NCBI GenBank assembly: GCA_020137815.1
Contig: CM035360.1
Location: forward strand, 4,216,001-4,280,000
DNA length: 64,000 nt
DNA from: Hormiphora californensis
Taxonomy: Eukaryota; Animalia; Ctenophora
Reading direction: 5' to 3'
Below, piece by piece: positions 12,081-64,000 of this stretch. Numbering within the stretch: position 1 is the first letter of the stretch; each line of letters opens with the position of its first letter. Both the position numbers and the translations under genes were made by a program. The notes beneath the pieces are model-generated. The model saw only the letters and a list, made by a program, of their open reading frames with translations. It had not been told where the DNA came from and did not search any database.

Positions 12081-12101
12081 GACTGGGGGATCTAGTTCAT
12101 G

Positions 12102-12129
12102 CTAAAGAGAGGGGGAGAATGTGTTAGTA
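12102..12129 (-). promoter_or_regulatory. Unpaired 3' splice site (candidate trans-splice acceptor) upstream of CFAP45
   Basis: TACTAACacattctccccctctcTTTAG, very similar in layout to the CC2D2A acceptor. Confidence 0.5.
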
Positions 12130-15500: not shown

Positions 15501-17154
15501 GCTTCTTTTTTAGCTCTTTCACTTGGAGTTTCCATGCAGCCATCTCATTTTTGTACCGCCCGTATTCGATATTCCATGCCCCCATTATTTCATCTTTCTG
15601 TTCAGTAAACGTGTGTTTGACCCTCCGCTGCCAGGCTTTATCCTCGGCCGCGTAGTCGCCCTGACTTTTGTGAATCAGAAGCTGGATGTTAGTATTAGTG
15701 TAGCCATTAGTTTCACGTAGAGTCTTTATATCACGCCATACCGTGAGAATGCTTTTTAGCATCTGTTTCTCTTTCAACCACTCCACATTCACCAGCTCCC
15801 TCACGTTCCTAATTTCCTCCAAATACTCATCCAAATTTTCCTTTCCCTCCCGATTAAACTGTTTCGTCATGTCCCAGGGTTTCGGTCCCAGAGTGTCCCT
15901 GATCTCCTGTACAGCATCCCGGAGAGATTGTAACCGAGAATCCAGGTGACTTGCTAGTTGTTGTCTTTGGAGGATCTGAAATCGTTGGTAAAGTTCCCGC
16001 AGCTGGGCCACTAGGACGTGCTCTCGGGAGAAAAGGGGGTGGTGGGTGAACTCAAGTTGGGCAACTGTGACGTGAAGCTGGTTGACGGTGCTGCGACCTA
16101 TAAATTTCCCATGTGAGGCGGTACATTTAGCAACTTGTTGGACGGTGCGGTCAACCTCAAAGTTGATCATTGGCCGTGATGAGATCTGTTTGAGGGGGTC
16201 AGGTGTCACCAACATACTACCATCAATACCAAACCATCTCTTTCCTCGATCCGTCTGCAGGAGACGACTCTCCATTTTGTTCCAGTTGGATAAGTTGACA
16301 CTAGGTGGCTCCCCGACATAGATACCCTCGTCCTCCAGAAAACAGGGCAAGCCACCGTGTAATGTTGTGGTCTCTACTGTCGAGGAGTCAGGGTAGAATG
16401 TCCGGCCATCTGGAACTGAGGACTTCATCTGTGGTCGGGCGACTACATACAAATTATCAAACTGAGAAAGAGCCCCATCGCCAGCGTCCACACGGTTAAT
16501 TTCAGTCGTCTCTTTTTCCGAAGGAGGGTTGTAAACTTTAGTGAAAAACGCCCACTCATCCACCTCTTCCTCTTGCTGGTGTAGACTCTCGATTGTATTT
16601 CTCTTGGCCATAACTTTCCATCTTAGACTAGTGCTCCTTTCCTCAGAAATATCCTGACCCGTGTCATCCTCTTCTATCCCACCACCTCCAGGACCACTCG
16701 TATCCGCAGTAATGTCGAACCGAGTCTGTTGCTCTCTTGCTCGGAGACCCCGTAGTTTCCTAACAGGTTCCTCCTGCATTGCACCCTCCTGGGACTTCTT
16801 GGCCTGTTCTTTGAGTCTCCAGCGGATGGAAGTACTCAGGTTTACTGACTGGGAGGCACTTTTCGGGTCCTCCTCTGTAGCATCCCCTAACATGGGTATC
16901 ATCTCAATATCATCACCAGACTGTTTCCCCACCCCGAAACTCTGATCAAGGGTCTGTTTCCGGATTTCACGGCGCTTAGCAATGCTTGTCATTAGTCTGG
17001 ATCCGTCTAAATTCCGGGAATCCCCATCCTCCTCTATGAGGGTGTCAGCTGGGATTGTCGTGTTTGATGTCATGTTCAGGTCTTTCCGTCGCTGGGATAT
17101 CTGTCCTCGGAGCGATATGTTGTTATCTGATGGTCTTTGTTGAAGTTGTAACAT
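12530..17154 (-). CDS. CC2D2A: CC2D2A (MKS6) transition-zone protein; apparently intronless, split by extra bases at 14109 and 14024
   Basis: Motifs LEDEGIYVG, FTHHPLFSREHVL, LDPNDPRNA, LLEPRHPLRPQRKERKK, RPFVEVSFQ...DGPNPHWNQEL (after repair), GDEEEHAVLLCNYF, C-terminal EFALSVYIHPYPNNVLSVWIYVA. ATG at 17154 follows a splice acceptor. Confidence 0.95.
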
Positions 17155-17156
17155 TG

Positions 17157-17186
17157 CTAAAGAGGGATACAGAGGATTTGTTAGTA
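17157..17186 (-). promoter_or_regulatory. Unpaired 3' splice site (candidate trans-splice acceptor) 2 nt before CC2D2A ATG
   Basis: TACTAAC branch point + pyrimidine tract + TTTAG|caATG; no canonical donor seen between it and the LRRC6 stop. Confidence 0.55.
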
Positions 17187-17382
17187 TTTGGGGAAGAGTT
17201 AGGATGGCGATTGAGGGCGCTTGGCCTTGGGTGAAGGGAAGAAGGTAAGAGGGTGAGACTGAGAGTTGGGATATTGGGAATTGGGCAGGTGAAAAAACAA
17301 AAATATCTATCCACAACACGGAAGAAAAACAGTCAACAGTAAAAACAGAAATTAAAAACAGCCCCAGAAAAAAAACATAGTT

Positions 17383-18741
17383 TCACATCAGTGGTGGTAC
17401 ATCAGGGTCATCTTCAAATCCAACTGGTACTTGTTTCACCTTCACAACAGGCTTGGTTTTGGTTACCATGGGTGCACCCTTCGAACCATCTGACTTAACA
17501 ATTTTACTGAAGTCCAAGTCTGGCTTTTTATCATCAAACTCCAAGAAATTGTTCGCATCCTTTTTCTTCTGTTTCTCCTTCAAGAATTTGGAGTTTTCAT
17601 CCCGGAACGATGGCCTAGAAACAGATTTAGTCGATTGCCATTGTTGGTTTAGTGTAGGCATGATTATTTGTAGCTTGCCCGTCATTTGAGATCTCTGACA
17701 AGAACTTGTATCCGGACAAACTTCCACGGGCAGAGTAAGCTGAAATGTCCGTCCCTCAGCGACTATTTTGATGTATGTAGGCTGAACGTCCATATCAATG
17801 TTGTGAGTTGAGAGATACTTTGGGACAGACACCTCAAGAGTTATCTCCCGACTATCACTAGAGTCATCTAACAGGAAGGGCCATTTCCCCTGATTGAGAT
17901 TGAGCCGTTTGCCCTCTCGTTCTAGAACTGTTTCTCTCTTAGGAACCTTGTTTGTCCGCACATTCGACTGAGCTGCCTCCCTCTCCAATCTCTCTTCCTC
18001 TAGTTTAGCGTGGATCTGTTTTCTCGTATCAGGGGTGTTTTCAACAGGGGTGTTCCAAAAATCGTCTTTGTTGTTTTTAGGTTTCTTTACCTCATCTCCC
18101 TCCTCATTTTCCTTCCCTATCTCTTCTATGGTAGCTTGAGGAGATTCCTCGGCGCCAATATCGGTGTACCATCGGCCACCCTTTCCCTCCTTTTTCTTCC
18201 GCTCTTTGATAAAGTAATCCTCCTGTTGCCACACAATGGATTTCCGGATCTCCTCCAGGTTTTGGGTCGCCTCAAGCCTTTCCGTGTTTGTAATGTCAAT
18301 GCCGTCAAGCCGCTGGAGTTGCGGCAATGTCCCTACAACGAAGTCACGGTAGTGCTCGAATTTCGCCGCTGGATTTCCTGTCATGTACATTTCATGTAGG
18401 AACTCATTGCATCGGAGTGATTCTATTGATGTTAGCTCAGCAATGAAGTTCACCGTAAGATCAAGCTTGTTGAGATTCTCGCACTTTTCAAGGTTTTCCA
18501 CTTTCTGAATGTTGTTCAGGGCGAGATTGAGATATTCCAGCTGTTTCAGCTTACTGACATTTTCAATTTTGTCAATAAGATTGCTCTGAAGGTAGAGGAT
18601 CTTGAGATCGCGACACCATTTGTCAATATGCTCGATCTTCTCTATGTCACTCTGATGTAAACTAATCTCTTCCAGTGAGAAAATGAGTCCTTCGTTATGC
18701 TCCGCCCGTTTCCGGATAAGGGCTTCAGAGATTTGAACCAT
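17383..18741 (-). CDS. LRRC6: LRRC6/DNAAF11 dynein axonemal assembly factor (LRR + LRRcap + CS domain), intronless CDS
   Basis: MVQISEALIRKRAEHNEGLIFSLEEISLHQSDIEKIEHIDKWCRDLKILYLQSNLI...; CS-like DVQPTYI; C-terminal FEDDPDVPPLM. Confidence 0.96.
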   Translation of the reverse strand: MVQISEALIRKRAEHNEGLIFSLEEISLHQSDIEKIEHIDKWCRDLKILYLQSNLIDKIENVSKLKQLEYLNLALNNIQKVENLEKCENLNKLDLTVNFIAELTSIESLRCNEFLHEMYMTGNPAAKFEHYRDFVVGTLPQLQRLDGIDITNTERLEATQNLEEIRKSIVWQQEDYFIKERKKKEGKGGRWYTDIGAEESPQATIEEIGKENEEGDEVKKPKNNKDDFWNTPVENTPDTRKQIHAKLEEERLEREAAQSNVRTNKVPKRETVLEREGKRLNLNQGKWPFLLDDSSDSREITLEVSVPKYLSTHNIDMDVQPTYIKIVAEGRTFQLTLPVEVCPDTSSCQRSQMTGKLQIIMPTLNQQWQSTKSVSRPSFRDENSKFLKEKQKKKDANNFLEFDDKKPDLDFSKIVKSDGSKGAPMVTKTKPVVKVKQVPVGFEDDPDVPPLM

Positions 18742-18866
18742 AATAGGGTTGCTAGAAGGTTTTAGATCTGAGGTCAATCAATGAAGAACAATTGAGTGCT
18801 TACTACGTACACGAGGCTATCAAGACAACAAATTGCAAAGCTAAGCTGCCGTATCCATCCAGGTCG

Positions 18867-19535: not shown

Positions 19536-22500
19536 CTATTCAGTTTTCTTGCACTCAGTTTCCTCGACAGCAGCTGGGGTCTCCTGTTGCTCCTCGTCGT
19601 ATGCAATCACAGATGAGAAATCTCCTGTAAAGATATAGGGTTGTTGGAAAAATCACAACGTTTACTTGGAATTTCTAGAAATAAATTTTTAGTATTGTCC
19701 CCAATTGGGCGAAATAGAGAGATATGTCTAATTCAAAAAAGAGATCTACCCAATTATTCCCCAATAATGTACCTTTGATGAGGCTAATGATGAGGGGGAT
19801 TCCGACACAGGTAGGAACAAGGTATAGCAGGGCAGGTTGGGCAGCATTGAAAATAGTCAGAACTCCAATAGTCATCCCCATACCAAGCACATAGGACATG
19901 AAACTAACCCAGAAGTAGAACTGGGAACCTTCACCCTTGCTATAAAAGAGAGGGAGTTGTGTATTAGTGGGGGGGGGGGGGTTAGTGGCGAATATTAGTG
20001 GGTAGTGTTAGTGGGGAGATTAGTCAGTTATTATCACGATTCTTTCATAATTCTGACCGGGGCGATGATTGATTTAATTCTCCAACAAACCTGGCATCAT
20101 ATCGGAGTAGAAGGGCAATGAAAACACCAGGTAGGACAATATCACCGAGGCCGAGCATGGCAAAGTTGGAGCCGAAGATTCCTTTGTCGAGAAAATCCAT
20201 GGGGAAGAGAACTGTAAAGGGGGTGGGGGAGTTAGTGACACTGTCTGGTTCGAATATATTACGTGCTAATTAATTACTTGTTGTATCAAACAAAGATTAA
20301 TTAATTATCAATTAATTATTTGTCAAATTACAGATGAATTACCTTTGATGGGTGCATCAAGATTCTTCGCAACCATGACCATAACCTCAGTCCCAAACAC
20401 CCAGAAAATATCGTAGAAGAACAGAAGGGAGAGAAGGATACATCCGTTCTTAACACTGAAAAAAGGTCAGTTTTTATTATAATTATTATTATGAATAAAC
20501 TTTGGTGGTATTGGTCATAGCTAGAGAGGTCGGAGATGGATAGATTGGTAAAGATATCCCGGAATTATCATTTATCCCTATTGTGGATTCTATTGTCTGT
20601 TTCCGGGCTAAATATGGTGATCTATTGTCAGCACTCACCTTCCTAGAGAAATCATCTCAATACCGTTGATGGAGAATGCTAGACCAAACACATTGTTAGC
20701 CAACCAATGCTGAAAGAGGATAGAGAGATGGCTATTATACTATTTCACTAAGTTGGTGTTTCTATCTAATAGGTTACTGTGGTAGGGAAGGGAGCTCTCT
20801 GTGGTTTGTGAAAAGGGGATGTGTGATAGAACGATTACCCCCCCCCCCCCCCCCATTATACCACTCCGATTGTGCAACTGTCTGTTGAAATGATCCCCCC
20901 GCGCGCGCCATCTGACGCAAGTCTGCTGCTGACCATGAGATAATTTGGTATGTTTGAGACGCCGCGCGTGCCATCTTTTCCCCTGTCATACGTGGAAGGG
21001 GACAACGTGAATTTGATTCACGGTCCTTTTATAAAATAAGGGATCTGGGATTATTCAATTAATTTTTCAGGTACTCTACCTTTTTGAGGATATACCAGAC
21101 TCCAAAGAGAGCTGAGAGAGCAAGGGAAACGACGTAGAGAAGATCAAACTTGCACTCGAAATAAACTGAGGGACGGGGGTGTTAACAATTTTACTTGAAT
21201 TCGTGAAGACACAAGGTACAATTAATATAGTTAAGTATACTGTTAAGTATACTGTTTTGGAAATGTAATATGGAATGTAATATGGAACCAAGATTGTTCC
21301 TAAATCACGAGCCGCTCATACCAACCAACCAACCAACCAAGATTGTTCCTATCCCTTGCCCTCAACTACCCCCCAACTAAGCAGCCCTCATCATCAGCAG
21401 TGGTAATTTTTAGGGGATAGGGTGACATAGCGAACTAATTTATTTATTTGGTTTTTGGACAAAATTTTGACATATTTGGATTTCAAGGAGCACAGATTGG
21501 CAGCGAAATCGCCCAATATCTACCCTAACGAAGCACTTGCAGCACACTACCAATCACAACACAATGGAGAACCCCCTGATTTAGAGTTTGACATATTGGC
21601 AACTGGCTAGGACCAGCCAGTCAGACGAAAAGTCACGGAGGCGATCCTAATCAAATCTCTTAAACCTACTACATACTTAACAAACCTACTAATTAACAAA
21701 CGAGAAGAGGGAGAAAAGATCGAACAATTTATTATCTGATACAGTATCTGATTTTCTGATTCCTAGTTTGCGTGTGATGTATATATTGTACCTCGACCAA
21801 AACGCGGAGTTTTTACGTCAGCCGACCCGAAACCTGATTAAATTTTGCCACCCGCTGGTCTCAGGGCCTCCAAATATGTCTAAATATTATATGTCTAAAA
21901 TATGTCTATATTGTCATTTGGGGTCATTTAGACCTTTTAATTACATGTAATTACCCTTTAATTACATGTAATTACATTTTAATTACATGTAATTACTTCC
22001 AATTACATTCCAATTACTTCAGCACGTCGAGAGCTTTCGAACGCACCCTAGAACACCTTTCTACTCCTTCTAATTGCCGAGTTCTGTATACCCCTTATTT
22101 TGACTGTTTTTCGCGTCCTACCCCTTATAAATTTGGGTATGGCCATCGCCACACCCCCTATACGTCGCGGGACCTCGAGACCTTTCCAACGAGCCATAGA
22201 ACACCTCTCTACTACTTCAGGGGGCTTCAAAACTTTCACTCTAAAAATATCTATGGTTTTATGGTTATGGTTTATGGTTTTTTTTTCATCTGGTATTAAG
22301 GGCCTGTCGGCTCGGCCCCGTTGTTTTAGTTTTAGGGGGGATGTTTTAGGGGGGATGGGTTGAGTTTGGGTTATATTCGGGTCGGGGGGCCTTGCCAGGC
22401 CCCGAATAGTTCCTATTTCGTGTATTTTAGATATTAGACATTAATTAATGTGACCTTATTTTTAGCAGCCTGATGATGTCGATGTTCGACGAAACCGTCG

Positions 22501-25500
22501 TGTAATTTATTTCCTGCAATAAAATCATTGTCTCAGTTGTCCATATACTGCTATCAACTACTGAAGATGAGACTAATATCAAGCGTGGCAACACATGAAC
22601 TTTATAAATTTTGGATGTAATTGTAAGTAATTACATGTAATTAAAATGTAATAACATGTAATTAAAGGCTCTAAATGACCCCAAATGACTTTGACGTATT
22701 TAGATGTCCTGAGACTAGCGGGTGACCAAATTTAAGCCGGTTTCGGGTCGGATGACATAAATACTCCACGTTTTGGTCGAGAAATATCCAGTAACATTAT
22801 ACGCGATAGGACTGGGTACACGATAGGACTGGGTACACGATAGGACTGAACCATTCGGCTCACTTTTCAATATGCGTCTACTCATTTTGTTACTTCTCTT
22901 GCTCCTTCAGGTAATTGAGATAGTTTTTACTGTAAATAAATGAAATTTACATTGTATTAATTAGTTTCATTTTACCATTACTGAAATCAATTCTTTCTCT
23001 CCAGGTCCAGAACCTTGAAGCACGTGGGACATTTGAGATACAGTTTCTGGAGTATAGTAATCCTGATTGCAGTGAGTCAGGTGGTTGCGACTTTTACTTC
23101 AAAGACTTTCAACTCGGCGTCAATGGAATCTTACATGACTATGAATATTATATAGATCTTCCATATAATACAAGCGTTGTGGATTTGACAACTATTTACT
23201 TTGGAAGTTACAATTTTTCGTTCGAATTCCCAATGAGAGCAACAGTTAGTACGAGCTGGGAAGTTTGGGAATATGATGATGGGTCGATGGTCGGGGATGA
23301 TAAAATCCAAGACATCAACATTTCCATCCCTCTCTCAAACTACACAGCCTCTTCAGTTTGGCAGACTAGAAAATATTCTGGGACAACAGAAGAAGGAAAC
23401 ATAGCTGTTCTGTCGCTTAAATTCCGTATATCAAGTTGTGATTCACACTTTAAAGGAAAGGGATGTGATGATTGTAAGGAAAAGTGGGAAGGAAGCATTT
23501 GTGATATTTGCAGAGGAAACTGGAAGGAACCTGATTGTGATATCTGTGATATTGGCTGGGACATTGGGACAAACTGTACGACTTGTGCTGGCAACTATTA
23601 TCCAGCTGGAAACTGCTCTCTACACTGCATCCCTACTCCCGAAATGTCAACCTGTACTGACCAGGGACAGTTAGTCTATGAAGATCACGTCATAGGAGAT
23701 ACCTGTGACACCTGTGAAACAGGGTGGGATATTGGGACCAACTGTAGCTCCTGTTTTCCACATTTCTATCCAGCTGGGAACTGTTTGGTAAAGTGTGTCT
23801 CTGTCCAAAACATGTCTTGGTGTGATGATCAGGGGAATCTGGTTTGTAAGCCCCACGTCACTGGGGACATCTGTGACCGTTGTGCAGTAGGTCGGGACAT
23901 TGGGACAAACTGTACGACTTGTGCTGGCAACTACTATCCTGCTGGAAATTGCTCTCTACACTGCATCGCGGATCCTGGAATGTCAACCTGTACTGACCAG
24001 GGACAGTTAGTCTGTGAAGATCACGTCATAGGAGATACCTGTGACACCTGTGAAACAGGGTGGGACATTGGGACCAACTGTAGCTCCTGTTCTCCACATT
24101 TCTATCCAGCTGGAAACTGTTCAGTAAATTGTGTCTCTGTCCCAACCATGTCTTTTTGTGACAGCCAGGGTGCTCTAGTTTGTGAGCCTCATGTTACAGG
24201 GACCAACTGTGACAAATGCCTAACAGGATGGGACATTGGGACCAACTGCACGAGCTGTGAGGAGGATTGGACAGGCGAGAAATGCGACTCTTGTGCAGAT
24301 AGCTTCTATCCAGCCGGGGATTGCACTGTTCACTGCCTGTCTGATGATAACTTTGCGTGCACTACTCAGGGAGTTCGGCTGTGTAAAATAGGAAGTACTG
24401 CAGAGGAATGTGTTTCCCACAACAACAACTTGGTCGGGAAGGCTATCCTAGGTGGTATGATATCTGGTCTCACTGTGGTTCTACTCGCCGGATTGGTTGG
24501 GATAATCGTGGTTACTATTAAATATAAAAGGAGGAGGAATACTACCGCTGAACCGATTGTTCATCAAGGCCCAACAACCCAGAAGGAACATGATTATGTG
24601 GAGATGGACGACGTCACAAACAAGCCCATCTAGCACCTGAACCCGGGGTATAATGACTAAGGAGATTAGACTTTCACCATAATTGGTTTTGAACTGTGAG
24701 ACTAATATAATCGGCTTTAATATAACTAGAGCCCAACGTTTTCAATAATAACAACGGCTGATACACAGGGATTCGTGTGTTGAAAAATCAATGTTTTTGA
24801 TGTTCATTTTGAGCATAGGGAGGATATGAATTATGAGTTTAGCCATTTCCATTTTCCGCCAAAAATTGGCCGGATTTGGGGCAAAACTGTTTTCCTGGCT
24901 ATTTGAAAGACTTTTCGGAAACATTCACTGCACCAAGCACATGTAACAAAATTCAGATTTCAGACATGGAATAGCTCTGTACAACCCTTTTCTAACTATT
25001 CCATGTCGAAAATCTCGGTTTCGTGGACGAATTGAGGGAAATACGGCTGTTTCAAATTAGCAGACTAAGGCGGGCTAATTGAAACACCAAATTTGGATAA
25101 ATATCACGTGACCCTGACCCCGGAAGACAAAATGAGACATCTCAAACCACTTCAAAAACTACCCTGGGACTGTCTCGGTAAAATAGGGTGAAACAATTTT
25201 AGGTTTGACTTGATTTGTAGACACACAAAGGAAAAAAGTGAAAAACTGTTTCAAATAGCCAGTGGCTACCCTATCCAGGCGCGGCTCAGGAAAGTTGGCA
25301 GGTCGGTAGAACTTCGACAGAATTTATGGCAGGTCTGAATTTAGGGCATCTCTGAATTTAGGGCGGGTCTGAATTTAGGGCAGGTCTTAATTTAGGGCAG
25401 GTCTGAATACTCAGAGTGACTGAGAGTTAGTAGTCGGATGATAGGTATTTGATGATCTTATGATGGTTGAGAGTGAGTTAGGAGGATACAAATATTTAGG

Positions 25501-28500
25501 AATTCGTTGGGGGAGATTTAATATTATTTACTTGTTACAATAGTTATGGAGAGATAAGAATTTGGGTCAATGTTTTAGATGAGTAGGAATAGCGAGTAGC
25601 CGCATACAAGTGATTGTGTGACGTGCCGAGAGGAGAAGCTGCCACGTCAGCCTTGACTGGCGTGGACCGCGTGATTTGAGAAAGAGGTGACCAGGGAGCG
25701 AGATATGAGAGGAGAGAGTTCTGTTTTAGGGGATTAGAATCTGTTGCTCGGGAGATGGTGGGAAACCATTTCTCTCATATATATATATATTGGCTTTGCC
25801 CGAGTTTTGTGAGTCTCGTAGCATTTACACCACAATGCGCACCAGTGGTGCGCATTGTGGTGCGGCACCACATATTTCATGAAAACGTGTCAAAGAAGTG
25901 GTTTATGAAGGAGCATGAGCAGTTGCATAGCAGGTAGCGGTGGACATTTAATTATCCTTCTACCGAAAAAAAACATAAATTTAGTCCAAAACCAATTAAA
26001 TAAATTAGTTTCGATGCCCGAGCCAACAATTTAATATTCCATTATCTATGACAGTAGCTTAAAGGTATTATACCCGTATAGTAACACCACATGGGCCCAA
26101 ACTAATATATTTACTTTTGTTTTTTTGGACTAAACTTTGACATATTTGGATGTAATTGGAAGTAACTACATGTAATTAAAATGTAATTAAAATGTAATTA
26201 AAATGTAATTAAAGGCTCTAAATGACCCCAAGTGCCTAGTTAAACAAACTTTGGCGTATTAGGATTACCTGAGACTAGCGGGTGACCAAATTTAAGCCGG
26301 TTTCGGGTCGAATGACGTAAATACTCAACGTTTTGGTCGAGAAATATCCAGTAACATTATATACGCGATAGGACTGGGTACACGATAGGACTGGGTACAC
26401 GATAGATACAGTTTCTGGAGTACAGTAATCCTAATTGCAGTGAGTCAGGTGGTTGCGACTTTTACTTCAAGCACTTTGAAATCACCGTCGAAGGAAACAT
26501 CGATACGACAATAAATAGAATAGATCTCCCAATTAATACCAACGTTGTGGATTTGACTACTGTTTTGGCGTGTAAAAGAAACGTTTTTTTCCCAATGAGA
26601 GCAACAGTTAGTACGAGCTGGGAAGTTTGGGAAAATGATGGGTCGGTGCTCGGGGGTGATAAAATCCAAGACATCAACATTTATATCCCTCTCTCAAACT
26701 ACACAGCCTCCCCGGTTTGGCAGACTAGAAAATATTCTGGGACAACAGAAGAAGGAAACACAGCTGTTCTGTCGTACAAATTCCGGATCTTTTGTTATGG
26801 AAACTTTCAAGGGAAGGGATGTGATGATTGTGCTGACAACTACTATCCTACTGGAAACTGCTCTGTACACTGCATCCCACCTTCTGGAATGTTGACCTGT
26901 ACTGACCAGGGACAGTTAGTCTGTGAAGATCACGTCATAGGAGATACCTGTGACACCTGTGAAACAGGGTGGGACATTGGGACCAACTGTACGACTTGTG
27001 CTGACAACTACTATCCTGCTGGAGACTGCTCTGTACACTGCATCCCACCTTCTGGAATGATGACCTGTACTGACCAGGGACAGTTAGTCTGTGAAGATCA
27101 CGTCATAGGAGATACCTGTGACACCTGTGATATTGGCTGGGATATTGGGACCAACTGTAGCTCCTGTTCTCCACATTTCTATCCAGCTGGGAATTGTTCG
27201 GTAAAGTGTGTCTCTGTCCCAACCATGTCAACTTGTGACAGCCAGGGGAATCTGATATGTGAAGATCACGTAACAGGGACCAACTGCACGAGCTGTGAGG
27301 AGGATTGGACAGGCGAGAAATGTGACTCTTGTGCAGATAACTTCTATCCAGCCGGGGATTGCACTGTTCATTGCCTGTCTGATGATAACTTTGCGTGCAC
27401 TACTCAGGGAGTTCGGCTGTGTAAAATAGGAAGTACTGCAGAGGAATGTGTTTCTCAAAACAACAACTTGGTCTGGAAGGCTATCCTGGGTGGTATGATA
27501 TCTGGTCTCACTGTGGTTCTACTCGCCGGATTGGTTGGGATAATCGTGATGACTATTAAAAGGAGGAGGAATACTACCGCTGAACCGATTGTTCATCAAG
27601 GCCCAACAACCCAGCAGGAACATGATTATGTGGAGATGAACGACTTCACAAACAAGCCCATAACATCTGAACCCGGGGTATAATGACTGAGGAGATTAGA
27701 CTTTCACCATAATTGGTTTTGAACTGTGAAACGGCTTTAATATACGTGATGATCGCAAAAGGCGTACCCTCGTCCTTGTTTCGTTTTGGCAATATGTAAT
27801 TCTTGTTGATTAAGAAAATTTAATGATCTTCCGAAAAAACTTTTCCTAAAATTTCAAAAATTCATAGTCAATTGTTCGTATAATTTATGTTTAAGAATAT
27901 AATGTGCATTATTTCTCTTCTCCCGAAAAAAGTTTTTACTGTCAAAAATGACTAACAACTGAAATGAATCCATGGGTTGTTTTGCATTGAATTCTTTGGT
28001 CTAGAAACTATCGGATAGAATCATTTTTAGAACTTTTTTCTGGATGTCACCCTAAAAACCACCCTGTCGACAGAGGCCCCACCCCACATTTTCTCCCTCT
28101 CCCTACCCAAGGTGCCCCTGTCCCTAGCACCCCAAACCCTCTCCTTACCCAAGGTGCCCCTGTCCCTAGTGCCCCCAACCCTCTCCTTGCCTTGTCCTCC
28201 CTTTTATAGAATTAAAAAAAGGGTTTGAACAAAACAATCCTCTCCACCCCGCCCCATACAGCCAACTCCACAGATTCTCACTCTACTTACCTAAGCTACC
28301 CTTGTCCCCAGTGCCCCCAACCCTCTACTTACCTAAGCTACCCTTGTTGAACTTCATGTGGTAGAGGTACTCACTCTACTTACCTAAGCTACCCTTGTTG
28401 AACTTCATGTGGTAGAGGTACTCACTCTACTTACCTAAGCTACCCCTGTCCCCAGTGCCCCAACCCTCTACTTACCTAAGCTACCCTTGTTGAACTTCAT

Positions 28501-31500
28501 GTGGTAGAGTTCCTCACTCTACTTACCTAAGCTACCCTTGTTGAACTTCATGTGGTAGAGGTACTCACTCTACTTACCTAAGCTACCCTTGTTGAACTTC
28601 ATGTGGTAGAGGTACTCACTCTACTTACCTAAGCTACATTGGGACCAACTGTACGACTTGTGCTGACGACTATTATCCAGCTAGAGACTGCTCTCTACAC
28701 TGCATCCCTACTCCCGAAATGTCAACCTGTAATGACCAGGGACAGTTAGTCTGCGTTCCCAATAGAAAAGGTTTGAATTGCGATATTTGTGTAGATAACT
28801 TCTATCCAGCCGGAAATTGTTCAGTAAAGTGTGTCTCTGTCCCAAACATGTCAACTTGTGACAGCCAGGGTACTCTGGTTTGTGAGCCCCATGTCACAGG
28901 GACCAACTGTGACAAATGCCTAACAGGATGGGACATTGGGACCAACTGCACGAGCTGTGAGGAGGATTGGACAGGCGAGATATGCGACTCATGTGCAGAT
29001 AACTACTATCCAGCCGAGAATTGCACTGTCCACTGCCTGTCTGATGATAACTTTGCGTGCACTGCTCAGGGAGTTCGGCTGTGTATAATAGGAAGTACTG
29101 CAGAGGAATGTGTTTCCCACAACAAGGCTATCCTGGGTGGTATGATATCTGGTCTCACTGTGGTTCTACTCGCCGGATTGGTTGGGATAATCGTGATGAC
29201 TATGAAAAGGAGGAGGAATACTGCCGCTGAACCGATTGTTCATCAAGGCCCAACAACCCAGAAGGAACATGATTATGTGGAGATGGATGACGTCACAAAC
29301 AAGCCCATCTAGCACCTGAACCCGGGGTATTCATGACTGGAGAGATTAGACTTTCACCATAATTGGTTTTGAACTGTGAGACGGCTTTAATATACGTGAT
29401 GATCGCAAAAGGCGTACCCTCGTCCTTGTTTCGTTTTGGCAATAATTCTTGTTGATTAAGAAAATTTAATGATCTTCCGAAAAAAATTTTCCTAAAATTT
29501 CAAAAAGTCATAGTCAATTGTTCGTATAATTTATGTTTAAGAATATAATGTGCATTTAATATTTCTCTGTCAACAAGAATAAATACATTATGTTTCATAA
29601 TGCTATGTTTCCCTGCCAACCTTTCATTTCTAACACGAAGGCGGGACAGACATTTCGGATCATTTATAAATCAACCAAACAGTATAGAACAAATCCTTGT
29701 GTTTTAGTAACACTAAATTGTGTGCCACATTGCGGAATTGCGCGGCACACAATTCCTGAAAACGTGTCAATGAAGTGGTTTATGAAGGAGCAGGTTGTTG
29801 TTGTGTGTGCGGCTCTAGTTGCTACATGTCGCCCCTCGCAACCTGAAACGGGACAAGAGAGCTGACTTGCTACACATAGTCACTATATCCGTGAAGGCCC
29901 CGATTTAGTGGCCCCCGATTTAGTGGCACCCCCGATTTTGTGGCACCCCCAAAAATTTTTTGTGAAATTTTTTGTGAAATTTTTTGAAAATTTTTCAAAG
30001 AAACACCAGCCATGTCCGAATCGTTTTTCGAATCAGTGAATCTTATCGCATGTCCTGCTGCTAATAAGGAACCATAATAAAGTTCAAGAGCCTCCAAGAG
30101 CGCACCCCATCCAAGAGAGACCAAAATCAAGAGCGCACCACAATCAAGAGAGACCAAAATCAAGAGCACACCACAATCAAGAGAGACCAAAATCAAGAGC
30201 ACACCACAATCAAGAGAGACCGAATCAAGAGCACACCACAATCAAGAGAGACCAAATCAAGAGCGCACCACAATCAAGAGAGCTCCCTATCCAGAAGATA
30301 CCAGATGTGGTGCGCTCTTGAATTTGGCCTCTCTTGATTGTGGTGCGCTCTTGATTTGGTCTCTCTTGATTGTGGTGTGCTCTTGATTTTGGTCTCTCTT
30401 GATTGTGGTGTGCTCTTGATTTTGGTCTCTCTTGATTGTGGTGCGCTCTTGATTTTGGTCTCTCTTGGATTGGGTGCGCTCTTGGAGGCTCTTGAACTTT
30501 ATTACGGTTCCTTATTAGACGGTTCGGAACGAACCGATACGTGATCCCCATGGGGCCATTGAATCACAAGTTCACCAAGCGTCTAAATTTCGATTCGATG
30601 GGGATCACGTTTCGATTCGTCCCGAACCGTCTAATTAGTAGCAGGACATGCGATAAGATGCACCGATTCGAAACAGGATTCGGACGTGGCTGGTATACCT
30701 TTAAAAATTTTTTTTGCAAAATTTTATAGTAAGATTGCCAATGCTTTGATCGGTGCTCCCCATAAATTTTGAGAGAAAAAGTTATTTTGAAATTTTGATA
30801 CTTCCTCACCTGCTTAGGGTGCCCTAATTCGGCATGGTATCACGTATCGGTTCGTTTCGAACCCGCTAATTAGACAGGATATCCAGTAAGCTGCACCGAT
30901 TCGAAACACAAATTGGACGGGCCGGTATAACTTTTTTTTGGGGGGGGGGGGGGTGGCGGCCAACATCGGCCTGAATATAAATACGTGTAGACACTTAACA
31001 ATGATAAAAACTGTAATAAATTAAATATAAAATGAGTCTATTGCCCCACTTGATATAGCTGCTCGTCCCTGCTGCCCTCGCCCCTCAATCTACCCCGATG
31101 CCCCCTGATGGAAACAGTTATTGATCGCACCATGGCGAAAGATAGTCTGAGTCGAAGATAACGGATGCATTGGTCGTAGGTGTATCCCGTTTTCTTAGCT
31201 TTCTTATCGGCTAGCTGTTTCAGTGTATTTTTGAATTCCCGACCGAGACCCCCCGTCGTGGACATTACCAGAGGTGTAAATGAAGATTTTTCCACTTCAA
31301 TGACCCGATGAAGGTAGCCAGTCTTTTTCTCCCTCTCATGTTTTTCATACACTTTAGAGATTGCCTGGTTAGAGTTGGATGCCACCCTAGGATTAAATAC
31401 CCTCACATCAAAATAGGTGTTATCCATGCTAGACCAGAAATCACGTGTACTGATATCTAGGCGAGCTCCATCCGCCGTAATAGTTCCCTCTGGGAGACTC

Positions 31501-32493
31501 ATTCCTCGTACATTTAGCAGATGGGGTTCAAATTTCGTGTCATGACACACATTACTGAACTCACTTGCAATAAAGTCTCTCACGTTGTTGTGGCGAAAGC
31601 ATACAAAACCGCCGATCTTACATGAGATTGAGTGATCGATACTATTTTCCTCTCCACACACGCAGTTGGTAGGCAGTGCTTCTCCTGTCAGCGTCAGGTT
31701 GTATCGTGCAGACAGAGCATCATGCCACTCTTGTCTGTTCAGGGTAAAGTTTAATGCTTGGAGGGGAAGACAAGTAAGCCAAGAAGATGCACCTTTCTCA
31801 GACAGGAGATCAAGGTTCCTGCTTTCGGCGCTAGTCATTTTGCTTCGAATCTCCTCAATTTTCTGATGATGAATGTCATTTTTGGTACGGCGAATAATTG
31901 ATGATTTCTCAGTTTGTTGGTTTTTGTCAACCTGAAATGTTTCGTGTTGGCCAAGAACCGCTGCAGACAAGTCTTCTGTGATGAACTTAGAAAAGCTGTA
32001 CTCCGAATCCGCCGGTATAACTTAGAAAATTTTCACAATTTTTTGAAAAAATTATTTTATAGTTTTCTATTTCTAATCAGAAATGATCATGTCAACAATA
32101 CATGAACATTGCATATAACAGTTAGAGGTGTCTTTAGTTTTAGTATAGCATTTTGGGCATAAAATAGGTTTTTATTGGCCAAATATGGCTCACCTCGATT
32201 TAGTGGCACCCCGATTTAGTGGCAGGATTTTTTCCCCCCGAGGATGCCACTAAATCGGGGTCCGACTGTATTTGCATGTAGTTGGAAGTAATTGTACATG
32301 TAATTAAAATGTAATTAAAGTGTATTTACATGTAATTAAAGGCTCTAAATGACCCCAAATGACAAGTTAAACAAACTTTGACGTATTTGAATGTCCTGAG
32401 ACTATACTAGCAGGTGACCAAATTTAAGCAGGTTTCGGGTCGGATTCATCATGATGTTAATGCTCCACGTTTTGGTCGAGACATTATATCCAG

Positions 32494-32557
<64 letters not shown>

Positions 32558-35500
32558 GGGGCCTGGCAAGGCCCCCCGACCCGAATATAACCCAAACTCA
32601 ACCCATCCCCCCTAAAACATCCCCCCTAAAACTAAAACAACGGGGCCGAGCCGACAGGCCCTTAATACCAGATGAAAAAAAACCATAACCATTCGGGGCC
32701 TGGCAAGGCCCCCCGACCCGAATATAACCCAAACTCAACCCATCCCCACTAAAACATCCCCCCTAAAACTAAAACAACGGGGCCGAGCCGACAGGCCCTT
32801 AATACCAAATGAAAAAAAAACCATAACCATAACCATAAACCATAAACCATAAAACCATAGATATTTTTAGAGTGAAAGTTTTGAAGCCCCCTGAAGTAGT
32901 AGAGAGGTGTTCTATGGCTCGTTGGAAAGGTCTCGAGGTCCCGCGACGTATAGGGGGTGTGGCGATGGGTGTGCCCAAACCCATAAGGGGTAGGACGCGA
33001 AAAACAGTCAAAATAAGGGGTATACAGAACTTGGCAATTAGAAGGAGTAGAAAGGTGTTCTAGGGTGCGTTCGAAAGCTCTCGAGGTGCTGAAGTAATTG
33101 GAATGTAATTGGAAGTAATTACATGTAATTAAAATGTAATTACATGTAATTAAAGGGTAATTACATGTAATTAAAAGGTCTAAATGACCCCAAATGACAA
33201 TTCAGACATATTTTGACATATTTGGAGGCCCTGAGACCAGCGGGTGGCAAAATTCAATCCGGTTTCGGGTCGGCTGACGTAAAAACTCCGCGTTTTGGTC
33301 GAGGTAACCATAAAACCATAACCATAGATATTTTTAGAGTGAAAGTTTTGAAGCCCCCTGAAGTAGTAGAGAGGTGTTCTATGGCTCGTTGGAAAGGTCT
33401 CGAGGTCCCGCGACGTATAGGGGGTGTGGCGATGGCCAAACCCAAACCTATAAGGGGTAGGACGCGAAAAACAGTCAAAATAAGGGGTATACAGAACTCG
33501 GCAATTAGAAGGAGTAGAAAGGTGTTCTAGGGTGCGTTCGAAAGCTCTCGAGGTACTGAAGTAATTGGAATGTAATTGGAAGTAATTACATGTAATTAAA
33601 ATGTAATTACATGTAATTAAAGGGTAATTACATGTAATTAAAAGGTCTAAATGACCCCAAATGACACTTCAGACATATTTTGACATATTTGGAGGCCCTG
33701 AGACCAGCGGGTGGCCAAATTTAATCCGGTTTCGGGTCGGCTGACGTAAAAACTCCGCGTTTTGGTCGAGGTATATATATATATATATATATATATAATA
33801 GCGATAGGACTGAATCATTCAGTCTGAATGCCATTCATTCATATTGAAAAGTGGGCCGGGAAACCTTGTGTGACGTGTCTGTCATTCACTGAATGACACA
33901 CAGGTCACACGAGCCGGGTGCCCGGCTCACTTTTCAATATGCGTCTACTCATTTTGTTATTTCTCTTGCTCCTTCAGGTAATTGAGATAGTTTTTTAATT
34001 TAAATTAATGACATTTTACTTTGTATTAATTAGTATAATTTTCCCGTTCCAAAAATCATTTCTCTCTCTCCAGGTCCAGAACCTTGAAGCACGTGGGACA
34101 TTTGAGATACAGTTTCTGGAGTATAGTAATCCTGATTACAGTGAGTCAGGTGATTTTTACTTTTACTTCAAAGACTTTCAATTCGGCTTCAATGGAATCT
34201 ATGATTGGGGTGCAAATTATATAGATCTCCCAATTAATACCAACGTTGTGGATTTGACTGGAATTGATTGGGCGTGGATAAACCATGTTGGTTTCCCAAT
34301 GAGAGCAACAGTTGGTACGAGCTGGGACGTTTACGTTTACGTTTGGGAAAATGATGGGTCGATGGTCAGGGATGATAAAATTCAAGACATCAACATTTCC
34401 ATCCCTCTCTCAAACTACACAGCCTCTTCAGTTTGGCAGACTAGAAAATATTCTGGGACAACAGAAGAAGGAAACACAGCTGTTCTGTCGCTTAAATTCC
34501 GTATATCAAGTTGTGATTCGCACTTTGAAGGAAAGGGATGTGATGATTGTAAGGAAAAGTGGGAAGGAAGCATTTGTGATATTTGCAGAGGAAACTGGAA
34601 GGAACCTGATTGTGATACTGGCTGTGATACTGGCTGGGATATTGGGACCAACTGTACGACTTGTGCTGACAACTACTATCCTGCTGGAGACTGCTCTGTA
34701 CACTGCATCGCGGATCCTGGAATAACGACCTGTGATGACAAGGGACAACCGGTCTGCGTTCCCAATAGAAAAGGTTTGCAATGCTACTTTTGTGCAGATA
34801 ACTTCTATCCAGCCGGGGATTGCACTGTTCACTGCCTGTCTGATGATAACTTTGAGTGCACTGCTCAGGGAGTTCGGCTGTGTACAATAGGAAGTACTGC
34901 AGAGGAATGTGTTTCCCAAAACAACAACCTGGTCGGGGAGGCTATCCTAGGTGGTATGATATCTGGTCTCACTGTGGTTCTACTCGCCGGATTGGTTAGG
35001 ATAATCGTGGTTACTATTAAAAGGAGGAGGAATACTGCCGCTGAACCGATTGTTCATCAAGGCCCAACAACCCAGCAGGAACATGATTATGTGGAGATGG
35101 ATGACGTCACAGACAAGCCCATCTAACATCTGAACCCGGGGTATAATGACTGGAGAGATTAGACTTTCACCATAATTGGTTCTGAACTGTGAAACGGCTT
35201 TAATAATTAATATACGTGATGATCGCAAAAGGCGTACCCTCGTCCTTGTTTCGTTTTGGCAATAATTCTTGTTGATTAAGAAAATTTAGTGATCTTCCGA
35301 AAATTTTTTTCCTAAAATTTCAAAAAGTCATAGTCAATTGTTCGTATAATTTATGTTTAAGAATATAATGTGCATTATTTCTCTTCTCCCGAAAAAAAGT
35401 TTTGACTGTCAAAAACAAATTTGACTGTCAAAAATGACTAACAACTGAAATGAATCCATGGGTTGTTTTGCATTGAATTCTTTGGTCTAGAAACTATCGG

Positions 35501-37779
35501 ATAGAATCATTTTTAGAACTTTTTTCTGAATGTCACCCTAAAAACCACCCTGTCGACAGAGGCCCCACCCCATCCCACATTTTCTCCCTCTCCTTACCCA
35601 AGGTGCCCCTGTCCCTAGCACCACAAACCCTCTCCTTACCCAAGGTGCCCCTGTCCCTAGCACCCCAAACCCTCTCCTTACCCTAAGTGCCCCTGTCCCT
35701 AGTGCCCCAAACCCTCTCCTTACCCAAGGTGCCCCTGTCCCTAGTGCCCCAACCCTCTCCTTGCCTTTTCCGACCCTCCCTTTTATAGAATTAAAAAAAA
35801 AGGGTTTGAACAAAACAATCCTCTCCACCCCCCCCCCCATAGAGCCAACTCCACAGATTCTCACTCTACTTACCTAAGCTACCCCTGTCCCCAGTGCCCC
35901 CAACCCTCTACTTACCTAAGCTACCCTTGTTGAACTTCATGTGGTAGAGTTCCTCACTCTACTTACCTAAGCTACCCTTGTTGAACTTCATGTGGTAGAG
36001 GTACTCACTCTACTTACCTAAGCTACCCTTGTTGAACTTCATGTGGTAGAGGTACTCACTCTACTTACCTAAGCTACCCCTGTCCCCAGTGCCCCCAACC
36101 CTCTACTTACCTAAGCTACCCTTGTTGAACTTCATGTGGTAGAGCTCCTCACTCTACTTACCTAAGCTACCCTTGTTGAACTTCATGTGGTAGAGGTACT
36201 CCCTCTACTTACCCAAGCTACCCTTGTTGAACTTCATGTGGTAGAGGTACTCACTCTACTTACCTAAGCTACCCTTGTTGAACTTCATGTGGTAGAGGTA
36301 CTCACTCTACTTACCTAAGCTACCCTTGTTGAACTTCATGTGGTAGAGTTCCTCACTCTACTTACCTAAGCTACCCTTGTTGAACTTCATGTGGTAGAGG
36401 TACTCACTCTACTTACCTAAGCTACCCTTGTTGAACTTCATGTGGTAGAGCTCCTCACTCTACTTACCTAAGCTACCCTTGTTGAACTTCATGTGGTAGA
36501 GCTACTCACTCTACTTACCTAAGCTACCCTTGTTGAACTTCATGTGGTAGAGTTCCTCACTCTACTTACCCAAGCTACCCTTGTTGAACTTCATGTGGTA
36601 GAGTTCCTCACTCTACTTACCTAAGCTACCCTTGTTGAACTTCATGTGGTAGAGCTCCTCGTCAACCAGGAGGGAAGATCCGGGGATCATACCGAGAACG
36701 GGACGGACAATGAAGGAGAGGGCCCAGGTACCGATAATAAAGAAATAGGAGGCGATGACAAGATTTAGGTGTTCGGCAGATAGGTACTAGAGGGAGGGGT
36801 TGGAGTTATTTGGAGGGAGAATGAGATTATTGGAATTTGTTAAAGTCAACCTTGAAATGGTCTGAGGACTAATTTAAATTTAATTAGTACTAATTAAATA
36901 TGTACCTTGACAATAATGTAGATACCGAATAGCATTCCACTAGCCATGATCGGGAACATATACACATCTTTAGTAGACATTACCTCTATCTGGGTACCAC
37001 TCTCCTAAAAAGTGGGAATTAGGGGAAGAGGGGGCTGGGGAGAGGAGTGGGTGGTTAGGGGAGGGAGTGATTGGGGGAAGAGGGGGATGGGGAGGTGAGT
37101 GGGTGGTTAGGGGAAGATGGGGCTGGGAAGGTAAGGGGTCAGGGGAGTGATCATCAGACTCTGCTTCCAAATCATTTACCATTTCCTTACGTTAGTATCT
37201 CGATGATACACAAAGCTGGTATGTGATATGCATCCTACCTTTGTTATGCTCTAACTCTCCTTTACAGAGTCTAGCTAGGCAATCCTACCTTAGATTTCTT
37301 GTGGTACGTGATGCAATGCATCCTACCTTTGATTTCCTGTGGTACGTAATGCAATGCATCCTACCTTTGATTTCCTGTGGTACGTGATGGATCTGAAGGA
37401 CCCCCAGATGATGGGCACAATCGCCATCATGAAGAGGCTGAAGTAGGCCAGGGCCAATCCCTCAGTGCTCGCTACTGCCCGGCCCGTCAAGTTCTTAACC
37501 ACCTGAGAGGAAGTGGGAGCTGATTAGTAACAACTGAGGAAGTGGGAGCTGATTAGTAACAACTGAGGAAGTGGGAGGTTGATTAGTAGTGAAGTACGGG
37601 GTTTGTGTTACGAAATAATGAGCGATGTATGGCTGAAGAAAAATCTGAAAAACACCAAGTGTGTTGTTGAGTATCACTAATCTCTCATATACTTTGTAAA
37701 TTACAATTTGTACAAATATAATAATTACCTCTGGTAAAACCTCTTCAGGGGCTGTCACGGGTACTTCTACATCTGCCAT
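19536..37779 (-). CDS. HM13: Signal peptide peptidase (HM13/SPP); exons 37779-37729, 37502-37365, 37004-36906, 36786-36621, 21165-21080, 20709-20639, ~20455-20343, ~20211-20091, ~19939-19773, 19624-19536
   Basis: STEGLALAYFSL, HWLANNVFGLAFS, catalytic FYDIFWVFGT and LGLGD, QPALLYLVP, C-terminal KKTE ER-retrieval signal. Exon phases join across the 15.5-kb intron 21166-36620. Confidence 0.95.
21480..21740 (+). mobile_element. Penelope-like element fragment (GIY-YIG endonuclease C-terminus), degenerate
   Basis: Translates FKEHRLAAK...ALAAHYQSQH...LEFDILATG*...RRKVTEAILIKSLKPT..INKREE, typical of the PLE GIY-YIG end. Confidence 0.7.
21789..22408. mobile_element. Non-autonomous repeat with terminal hairpin (possibly Helentron/DINE-like)
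   Basis: Near-identical inverted copy at 32552-33773. One end has the hairpin TATTCGGG...CCCGAATA; internal AATTACATGTAATT repeats. Classification is a guess. Confidence 0.6.
22463..22506 (+). ncRNA. Degenerate minimal type I hammerhead ribozyme motif (Penelope-associated)
   Basis: CTGATGA (22470-22476), stem II GTCGA-tgt-TCGAC, GAAA, CCGTC; lies downstream of the PLE fragment. Stems I and III are imperfect. Confidence 0.5.
22872..24633 (+). CDS. Delta-like type I membrane protein, copy 1 (signal peptide, MNNL/C2-like domain, ~5 DSL-like repeats, TM, short tail); exons 22872-22910, 23005-24633; nested antisense in HM13 intron
   Basis: MRLLILLLLLLLQ|VQNLEARGTFEIQFLEYSN; WQT...LSLKFRISSCD; repeats CxxNYYPAGNCSxHCxP...TCxDQGxLVC...GxxC; TM ILGGMISGLTVVLLAGLVGIIVVTI followed by KYKRRR; tail HDYVEM. 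Confidence 0.85.
25248..25410. mobile_element. Fragment of the foldback family seen at 57103-58473
   Basis: GGCAGGTCGGTAGAACTTCGACAGAATTTA plus GGCAGGTCTGAATTTAG subrepeats. Confidence 0.65.
26404..27683 (+). pseudogene. Delta-like copy 2: lacks signal-peptide exon and intron, ~4 DSL-like repeats, altered C-terminus
   Basis: Upstream GATAGGACTGGGTACAC repeats join directly to ATACAGTTTCTGG (deletion with GATA microhomology). ORF otherwise open; a 2-nt deletion removes the normal stop. Confidence 0.7.
28275..28637. repeat. Duplicated copy of the HM13 donor-derived 51-bp tandem array
   Basis: Same unit as 35861-36660; part of a segmental duplication of ~35140-36070 at ~27700-28637. Confidence 0.9.
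28637..29312 (+). pseudogene. Delta-like copy 3, 5'-truncated (DSL-like repeats, TM and tail only)
   Basis: Begins abruptly (AAGCTAC|ATTGGGACCAAC) after the 51-bp array; C-terminal half nearly identical to copy 1. Confidence 0.75.
30066..30513. mobile_element. Palindromic foldback element with internal tandem subrepeats (CAAGAGCACACCACAATCAAGAGAGACCAAAAT)
   Basis: Inverted arms AAGGAACC...GGTTCCTT; inserted into GCTAATTAGAC of the host MITE. Confidence 0.8.
30934..32010 (-). mobile_element. 5'-truncated CRE-clade non-LTR retrotransposon (zinc knuckle + restriction-like endonuclease; ORF 31038-31970)
   Basis: SEKGASSWL..LPL, CVCG...DHSISCKIGG..RHNNVRD, ARLDI...FDVRV, HEREKK..Y, FTPLVMSTTGG; TSD GCCGGTATAACTT at 30921-30933 and 32011-32023; 3' C-run plus short A tail. 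Confidence 0.88.
32552..33773. mobile_element. Second, internally duplicated copy of the 21789-22408 element, flanked by (TA)n on both sides
   Basis: Sequence identity to 21789-22408 in opposite orientation; (TA)n at ~32497-32555 and ~33772-33797. Confidence 0.75.
33939..35126 (+). CDS. Delta-like type I membrane protein, copy 4 (~2 DSL-like repeats); exons 33939-33977, 34074-35126
   Basis: MRLLILLFLLLLQ signal exon, same intron position as copy 1, open ORF ending HDYVEMDDVTDKPI*. Confidence 0.8.
35861..36660 (-). repeat. 51-bp minisatellite (~15 units) made of the HM13 exon 3' end plus donor site
   Basis: Minus-strand unit GAGxxxCTCTACCACATGAAGTTCAACAAGGGTAGCTTAG|gtaagtagagt; the first unit is the true exon end. 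Confidence 0.92.

Positions 37780-55979: not shown

Positions 55980-64000
<8,021 letters not shown>

Follow-up and report, generated by a model that had tools for sequence, protein, structure and literature searches.

A Delta-like gene cluster in an intron

We analyzed a 64,000-nucleotide stretch of the genome of the ctenophore Hormiphora californensis (GenBank assembly GCA_020137815.1, contig CM035360.1, positions 4,216,001 to 4,280,000; the window, with positions counted from its first letter). It carries a tandem cluster of genes whose predicted products are membrane proteins built from a Delta-type C2 domain and several DSL-like repeats. There are four related units on the plus strand (Table 1), and their last repeat, transmembrane (TM) segment and DYVEM tail are nearly identical. 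A first-pass annotation, made from the letters alone, had described four tandem paralogues with near-identical TM segment and tail, and this is indeed what we find. However, only copies 1 and 4 are whole, with a start codon and a signal exon. Copy 2 lacks both of these, and copy 3 lacks the N-terminal domain.

All four frames run without stops or frameshifts across 224-542 codons. The predicted proteins of copies 1 and 4 have 555 and 363 amino acids respectively, and inspection of their spliced translations reveals a signal peptide and a single TM segment in each. Relative to copy 1, copy 2 has a 194-base deletion that took the start codon, exon 1, the intron and the first codons of exon 2. 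The same joint was found in DNA run X1, thus the deletion is not an assembly slip, and copy 2 is likely a pseudogene. A rescue of copy 2 by splicing from the copy 1 signal exon would be in frame, but it has no pyrimidine tract and would leave only half of strand 1, and it is unsupported. Copy 3 starts inside the cysteine-rich region, where it is joined to a minisatellite. In copy 4, both cysteines of loop 1-2 of the C2 domain are gone, as had been noticed in the first pass. In addition, the TM segment of copy 4 has an Arg codon (34998) where all aligned contigs from three DNA runs have the base for Gly. This is either a private change or a base error.

The cluster lies antisense within intron 4 of a minus-strand signal peptide peptidase gene (HM13-like), in agreement with the nesting that had been proposed. 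Exons 1-4 of this host gene are at 37779-36621 and exons 5-10 run from 21165 to about 19540. Two of six scanned exons match PF04258 at E<=4e-10 and a third matches weakly, while exons 5-9 are covered by spliced RNA pieces. The 15.5-kb intron is spliced across the array, because an RNA contig of run X20 runs from 21165 into the end letters of exon 4. The available part of a report on a related ctenophore genome gives 2357 nested intronic genes (PMC8527503). Nested genes being so common there, the arrangement needs no special explanation.

Table 1. Positions of the cluster copies, their parts and the surrounding features in the window
Feature	Position	Strand	Basis
Copy 1, whole unit	22872..24633	+	
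Copy 1 exon 1: ATG and hydrophobic signal peptide	22872..22910	+	GT donor at 22911 in the sequence; signal peptide by eye
Copy 1 intron: phase-0 GT-AG, 85% identity to copy 4 intron	22911..23004	+	Sequence-predicted
Copy 1 exon 2: C2 domain, 5 DSL-like repeats and short Cys units, TM, tail, stop	23005..24633	+	
Copy 1 Delta-type C2 domain	23026..23439	+	AlphaFold pLDDT 76, C2 fold matches, profile match to 7alk
Copy 1 V1: beta2 end, hairpin, beta3	23104..23151	+	
Copy 1 V2: loop 3-4 and beta4, indel-rich	23191..23226	+	
Copy 1 TM segment	24442..24519	+	Hydrophobic stretch, then basic residues; by eye
Copy 1 short tail, YVEM tyrosine motif	24595..24606	+	Motif common to all four copies
Copy 2: 425-codon open frame (C2 minus start, 4 DSL-like repeats, TM, tail), lacking ATG and signal exon	26406..27683	+	
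Copy 2 V1	26472..26519	+	
Copy 3: 5'-truncated remnant, 3 DSL-like repeats, TM, tail	28638..29312	+	
Copy 4, whole unit	33939..35126	+	
Copy 4 exon 1: ATG and signal peptide	33939..33977	+	38/39 bases same as copy 1
Copy 4 exon 2: C2 domain, 2 DSL-like repeats, TM with Gly-to-Arg change, tail	34074..35126	+	
Copy 4 V1	34173..34220	+	Identical piece in DNA run X1
Intron 4 of host signal peptide peptidase (HM13-like) gene	21166..36620	-	Exon mapping, spliced RNA pieces
End of high-copy repeat just upstream of copy 1	22610..22843	.	Self-BLAST; very high summed depth
Stretch related to that repeat, preceding copy 2	26145..26405		
Stretch related to that repeat, preceding copy 4	33564..33797		
51-bp minisatellite, 15 units, built from host exon 4 end and splice donor	35906..36660	.	
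Same 51-bp minisatellite, second occurrence, following copy 2	28277..28637	.	

The N-terminal domain and the repeats resemble parts of Delta

The N-terminal domain had been likened to the MNNL/C2 domain of Delta and Serrate. Pfam MNNL (PF07657) matches none of the four copies, and the resemblance is instead seen in the predicted fold and in a family profile. AlphaFold, given a five-row alignment, predicts a beta-sandwich; the predicted local distance difference test score (pLDDT) is 76 for the best model and 69, 44, 38 and 31 for the other four. Every match listed by Foldseek and VIA-align is a C2 domain. DLL4 (5mvx) aligns with the model over 128 residues (Z 10.9, root-mean-square deviation (rmsd) 4.1, 20% identity), as does Drosophila Delta (7alk; Z 10.1, rmsd 3.4), whose 23% identity is the highest among the matches listed. 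Intracellular C2 domains tie with the Notch ligands on Z, for example cPLA2 (Z 10.4, rmsd 3.4, 123 aligned), but among the same matches the identity to the model is 16-23% for Notch ligands and mostly 5-16% for intracellular C2 domains.

A profile of 10 family C2 domains gave four matches in the PDB, the best being the C2 domain of Drosophila Delta (7alk, E=2e-4). The other three are Jagged1 (E=0.87) and two chance ribosomal matches, with no intracellular C2 domain. A phmmer search of the PDB with copy 2 had no matches, and a single-sequence fold of the copy 2 C2 domain with two DSL repeats reached pLDDT 41 and was not used. In the ESM Atlas, the first matches of copy 1 residues 1-250 are MNNL+DSL clusters (0.82-0.84) and the copy 4 C2 domain alone matches C2 or unnamed clusters (0.86-0.88); these values are below 0.9 and serve as leads only. 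Because of the profile match, the extracellular position and the DSL repeats downstream, we consider that the N-terminal domain is very probably homologous to the C2 domain of Notch ligands.

By pattern search, copies 1, 2, 3 and 4 have 5, 4, 3 and 2 DSL-like repeats, with short cysteine units between them. The proposed DSL identity is supported directly in copies 2 and 3, where Pfam DSL (PF01414) exceeds the cut-off (42.8 and 39.7 bits), as it also does in relatives. Copies 1 and 4 fall below the cut-off (14 bits, E about 0.06), though their repeats align with those of copies 2 and 3. A profile of 10 DSL repeats from the window found one chance match in the PDB and no solved DSL domain. The Pfam scan of the copies matched neither canonical EGF (PF00008) nor the Ig family, and laminin-type EGF was matched only partially. 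Judged by eye, the DSL loop is presumably shorter than that of Jagged1 and without its Arg203/Phe207 Notch-binding motif.

Relatives in other ctenophores

All named homologues are from ctenophores. They comprise six Pleurobrachia bachei models (P0001, P0003, P0004, P0007, P0008 and P0024) and two Mnemiopsis leidyi models (P0023 and P0027), plus six ENA proteins. The representative search gave 14 matches, 6 of which were kept as family. Among the 8 set aside, the 6 that were scanned are unrelated or repeat families, and the other two are P0015 and P0017. The C2-DSL architecture is kept in both Pleurobrachia and Mnemiopsis; in P0023, for example, three tandem units of this design have been fused into one model, and two of them are complete with C2 domain, DSL repeats, TM segment and tail. 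In a C2 tree of 13 rows, the three window copies group together (96/98) and the three Mnemiopsis units group separately, with a base that is poorly resolved, long branches and no canonical Delta to root it. Since the two sets form their own clades, the tandem expansions appear to be separate. In one DNA run, contig depth is 1258-1544 over conserved family pieces compared with 136-479 over host-gene pieces. Though depth is not a copy number, this hints that the close subfamily has about 8-10 haplotype copies. Our literature search, in which subscription journals were scantly covered, found no prior description of a C2-multi-DSL family in ctenophores.

The tails differ within this family. In the window copies they are about 35-40 residues long with one YVEM tyrosine motif, and those of most relatives measure 130-300 residues. 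Across the last repeat, TM segment and tail, P0001 is almost the same as the cluster copies, but its terminal tyrosine motif has been lost through a stop or frameshift in all four copies. In the tails of 11 relatives, whose boundaries were set by eye, 51 of 94 tyrosines are followed by L/I/V/M at +3 (background 0.18). Motifs for SH2 docking or for endocytosis have this spacing of tyrosine and hydrophobic residue, as would suit a receptor. The tyrosine tail of the first-pass annotation is present in all copies and richer in the relatives, but YVEM could just as well act in endocytosis as a YxxPhi signal. The P0024 tail contains tandem YxxL motifs nine residues apart, which we take to resemble an immunoreceptor tyrosine-based activation motif (ITAM).

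Two of the Pleurobrachia models appear to combine parts of different genes. P0001 has the TM segment and short tail of the cluster joined to the C2 domain of another clade, and P0024 has the C2 domain of the cluster (read in a shifted frame; 65 residues align at 55% identity) joined to a long tail. As far as these models go, tip and tail seem exchangeable between genes, unless the draft models are chimeric.

Variation is concentrated where Delta binds Notch

Among copies 1, 2 and 4, 48 of 135 columns are variable overall and 14 of 16 in the best scan window (permutation p=0.0005). The variation is therefore clustered, as the first reading of the letters had indicated, and the variable segments quoted at that time for the three copies are correct. 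The description of these segments as loops needs to be changed, since in the predicted fold they span strand ends and a hairpin as well as loops. Type II C2 domains have beta3 and beta4 on the same edge of the sandwich, and the two segments, V1 and V2, are predicted to lie on the beta2-beta3-beta4 edge. Aromatic residues make up 9 of 28 positions of V1 and V2 in copy 1 and 8 of 27 in copy 4, compared with 1-6 in the other 11 rows.

In the HMMER alignment, V1 is placed over the part of Delta that starts with the KHYQ motif and includes the beta2-3 loop. We take the KHY part of this motif to match His64 and Tyr65 of DLL4. According to the available parts of the structural reports, these two residues touch the O-fucose of Notch (PMC7922208), and the beta2-3 loop of Delta, held by a disulfide, forms site 1 for Notch EGF12, the binding residues being conserved among human ligands (10.1101/101394). 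Thus, a surface that other animals conserve for Notch binding is the most variable one here.

This raises the question of whether the cluster encodes the "missing" Notch ligands of ctenophores, or modulators, in which the C2-DSL tip binds Notch on a neighbor cell and endocytosis through YVEM exerts the pull. Both the C2 domain and the DSL repeats are Delta-homologous, copy 2 keeps KHF at the KHY of Drosophila Delta, and Mnemiopsis is described as lacking an accepted ligand while it has Notch, Su(H), presenilin and Mindbomb-like genes, as far as the available text goes (10.1101/2025.09.30.679519). However, the family profile has no counterpart for either of the cysteines that staple the site-1 loop in Delta, and the model shows a two-residue hairpin there. 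The binding site is the least conserved part of these proteins, though it is conserved among the human ligands; canonical EGF repeats are absent, and short cysteine units are placed between the C2 domain and the first DSL repeat. We consider a role as Notch ligand unlikely for the cluster, though the ligand could be a better-conserved member of the family encoded at another locus.

In general design, the cluster shares with the Delta/Serrate/LAG-2 proteins (7alk, DLL4 5mvx/4xl1, Jagged1 4cbz) a signal peptide, an N-terminal type II C2 domain (MNNL) with a cysteine pair in loop 1-2, a DSL-type repeat, a single TM segment and a short tail. In Delta, one DSL domain directly follows the C2 domain and leads into EGF repeats, whereas the cluster proteins have 2-5 DSL-like repeats with short cysteine units, which also separate the first of them from the C2 domain. 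The beta2-3 loop of the cluster is without its disulfide staple and hypervariable, and the genes form a multigene tandem cluster with relatives whose tails carry tyrosine motifs. Because neither the domain order nor the disulfide loop of site 1 is found, we do not file these genes as canonical Delta.

Amino acid change in V1

In V1, the proportion of non-synonymous differences (pN) is 0.31-0.57 and that of synonymous differences (pS) is 0.03-0.19, compared with pN 0.05-0.06 and pS 0.07-0.16 in the C2 domain outside V1 and V2. There is no synonymous rise in V1. The introns of copies 1 and 4 have diverged by 15%. In a scan-corrected neutral simulation that left out V2, 0 of 1500 replicates reached the best window under each of two branch-length sets. 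The codon model M2a is better than M1a, with twice the log-likelihood difference being 50.3, or 25.1 without V2. In addition, when codons that differ by a single base are compared pairwise, all 16 differences in V1 change the amino acid, as do 26 of 44 outside it (p=0.035 with counts halved). V1 therefore has a local rate excess. Its cause is likely adaptive, judging from the three sequences compared, but gene conversion or a mutation hot spot could also produce it. In the comparison of dN/dS across paralogues that the first-pass annotation had called for, there is a non-synonymous excess in V1, the framework is near-neutral and overall omega is about 1.

Another explanation is that the copies are duplicates that are young, under relaxed constraint or decaying. 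The differences in V1 and V2 would then come from a mutation hot spot or from conversion, in which either the rest was homogenized or patches came from distant paralogues, and the many divergent family members are possible donors. Two of the four copies are broken, there are scattered substitutions of Cys, Trp and TM residues, omega over the C2 domain as a whole is 0.99, the C-terminal region has roughly equal dN and dS, and V2 has indels as well as saturation in both classes of site. Decay does not, however, account well for V1 lacking a synonymous rise, for the four long open frames, for an architecture kept in Pleurobrachia and Mnemiopsis, or for variable segments that are located on the known binding face of the fold. 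We regard it as an improbable account of the cluster.

Variants and transcripts

DNA run X1 has one contig over V1 of copy 4, and it is identical to copy 4. Run X5, from a second individual with the same species label, has four contigs there, all of which differ from copy 4 by 18-31 bases. Over the ranges of these contigs, copies 1 and 4 differ by 16-37 bases, so the X5 variants may be paralogues rather than alleles. Contig mapping filters out some contigs. Run X7, which has a second species label, contains the family mostly at <95% identity.

A further possibility is that the variable C2 edge mediates like-to-like binding, as in Dscam, protocadherins or Alr, and that the proteins mark self and non-self or cell identity. 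A constant frame with a variable tip and a tandem cluster are in line with this, as is the finding that all four X5 contigs differ. Against it, the number of differences matches the distance between copies 1 and 4, so that paralogues may be involved, and a handful of genes would give only a small repertoire for marking cell identity. Ready fusion of individuals, reported for Pleurobrachia, Bolinopsis and Mnemiopsis, is read as reduced allorecognition in the available part of the report (PMC11565835), and the allorecognition option of the first-pass annotation fits poorly with the fusion seen in Pleurobrachia. A homodimer prediction for the copy 1 C2 domain gave no answer (score 0.04), which is no evidence either way. 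We hold a role as like-to-like tags to be very doubtful.

No spliced transcript of copy 1 or copy 4 was seen in four RNA runs, and no contig spans the family intron. Run X8 has no contig on copy 4, X17 has none on copy 1 and X19 has traces, which is no proof of absence. Run X20 has three contigs of related genes over the repeats, the last DSL and the stop region, at a depth of 3-5 compared with 20 for the host gene.

A proposed family of diversifying recognition receptors

With moderate confidence, we favor the explanation that these proteins are not ordinary Notch ligands but diversifying cell-surface receptors for recognition, homologous to Delta and evolving by birth and death. The first-pass annotation had inferred such a receptor family. 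The Delta-homologous parts, the V1-focused non-synonymous change and the tyrosine-rich tails of the relatives agree with it, while two broken copies and a framework under little purifying selection do not. We suggest that a stalk of 2-5 DSL-like repeats would lift the C2 tip off the membrane, and that the edge which is variable and rich in aromatic residues, located where Delta has its Notch EGF12 site, would bind a changing partner such as a microbe, a parasite or a cell-surface molecule. The tail tyrosine could then recruit an SH2 protein or the endocytic machinery. Unequal crossing-over between the flanking repeats and between DSL repeats would make new copies, stalk lengths and combinations of tip and tail, and would kill other copies.

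Several observations weigh against recognition receptors. Only three C2 sequences were compared, one of them from the broken copy 2. The multi-base changes in the second half of V1 and the indels in V2 inflate the codon-model tests, and the excess at codon positions 1+2 in V1 is borderline against a neutral hot spot (26/32, p=0.054). The saturation of V2, the omega of the whole domain and the C-terminal dN point the same way. The first DSL repeat of copy 1 has a Cys-to-Tyr change, which could be decay, as could the Arg within the TM segment of copy 4. The tails in the window are short with a single tyrosine, and the swaps of tip and tail in P. bachei could be chimeras of the draft assembly. 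Finally, spliced transcripts of copies 1 and 4 were not seen, and the RNA contigs are weakened as evidence because X20 also holds repeat DNA.

A similar design is known from Hydractinia Alr, the vertebrate paired receptors and CED-1/Draper/MEGF10, which have a variable membrane-distal domain, a repeat stalk of variable length, long or short tails with tyrosine motifs, and tandem birth-and-death. These proteins use Ig, lectin or EMI/EGF domains. The likeness is in design and not in descent.

DSL proteins outside the canonical Delta form have been reported before. As described in the available parts of these papers, Amphimedon has EGF-less Deltas (PMC2770060, PMC10970066), a choanoflagellate has an MNNL+DSL protein (PMC6040629), Nematostella has genes with 1-11 DSL domains, including one MNNL+3xDSL gene (PMC2770060), and bivalves have tandem-DSL, EGF-less genes (PMC8166818); no function is stated there for the Nematostella and bivalve genes. 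The Nematostella and bivalve genes are multi-DSL and EGF-less like the cluster, one of them with an N-terminal MNNL, but their descriptions, the basis of this comparison, mention neither a TM segment with a tyrosine tail nor a hypervariable C2 domain. To these, the cluster adds ctenophore membrane proteins that combine a C2 domain with several DSL repeats and that change fast on the surface where Delta binds Notch. Further background is given in the available parts of PMC5882950 and PMC10970066.

The ctenophore lineage is often said to lack Delta. In the available part of a 2025 preprint, no Notch ligand was found in Mnemiopsis, a Delta too diverged for standard searches was suggested, and the DSL domains of ML21438a ("MlDelta-like") were dismissed as a sequencing error (10.1101/2025.09.30.679519). 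A 2025 survey, as far as it is available, gives Delta in only one of four ctenophores, Beroe forskalii, and none for Pleurobrachia or Hormiphora (PMC12166595). From these descriptions, ML21438a and the Beroe forskalii candidate are probably members of the C2-multi-DSL family. They are ctenophore DSL genes for which a C2 domain, a family or diversification is unreported in the available text of the two sources. C2+DSL proteins are present in both P. bachei and Mnemiopsis and were missed by Pfam MNNL. Thus, there are named candidates for ctenophore Notch binding, and the argument that the pathway is absent because there is "no C2+DSL protein" is removed. If these proteins are diversifying receptors, they would be an unlisted part of ctenophore recognition or immunity; the main text of a paper on the Mnemiopsis immune repertoire uses the terms DSL, Delta and Notch 0 times (PMC11797021). 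As a tentative and rather speculative proposal, ctenophores may keep the C2-DSL family as a variable receptor system, in which the Notch-binding loop is now hypervariable and tips, stalks and tails are exchanged as in paired immune receptors. The C2-DSL combination was then perhaps a general receptor before one copy became fixed as the Notch ligand.

Repeats and neighboring genes

High-copy repeat ends precede copies 1, 2 and 4, and a minisatellite is found at the 3' end, therefore the duplicated unit likely ran from the repeat to the minisatellite. Two very high-copy element stretches (21777-22411 and 32687-33786) flank copies 1-3 in opposite orientations, with a summed depth of about 600,000 compared with about 150-300 for single-copy DNA in run X1. 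The minisatellite at 35906-36660 offers about 15 decoy GT donors in a row to the host gene, and the single RNA contig seen uses the first. A 38-bp repeat of 2.8 units (37282-37389) also copies the end of host exon 2 with its donor, so that exon-end duplication has occurred twice in one gene.

Between copies 3 and 4, on the minus strand, a 327-codon open frame (31038-32021) has a Cys/His knuckle and nuclease-like motifs, with no meaningful Pfam or PDB match. We assume it to be the C-terminal part of a non-long-terminal-repeat (non-LTR) retrotransposon of the restriction-like endonuclease (RLE) type. It is flanked by repeats that recur at 40657-41508. Long, near-perfect inverted repeats, probably foldback elements, are found at 54499-55500 (1012 bp, 94%), 2320-2682 (364 bp, 98%), 57834-58054 (221 bp, 92%) and 30061-30518 (491 bp, 84%). 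On the minus strand, 5256-18777 holds several closely spaced, head-to-tail genes with very long exons. They include a 1110-codon frame (14050-17382, continuing at 12530-14062) that we take to be CC2D2A-like and a leucine-rich repeat (LRR) protein (17383-18777) that is presumably a dynein assembly factor.

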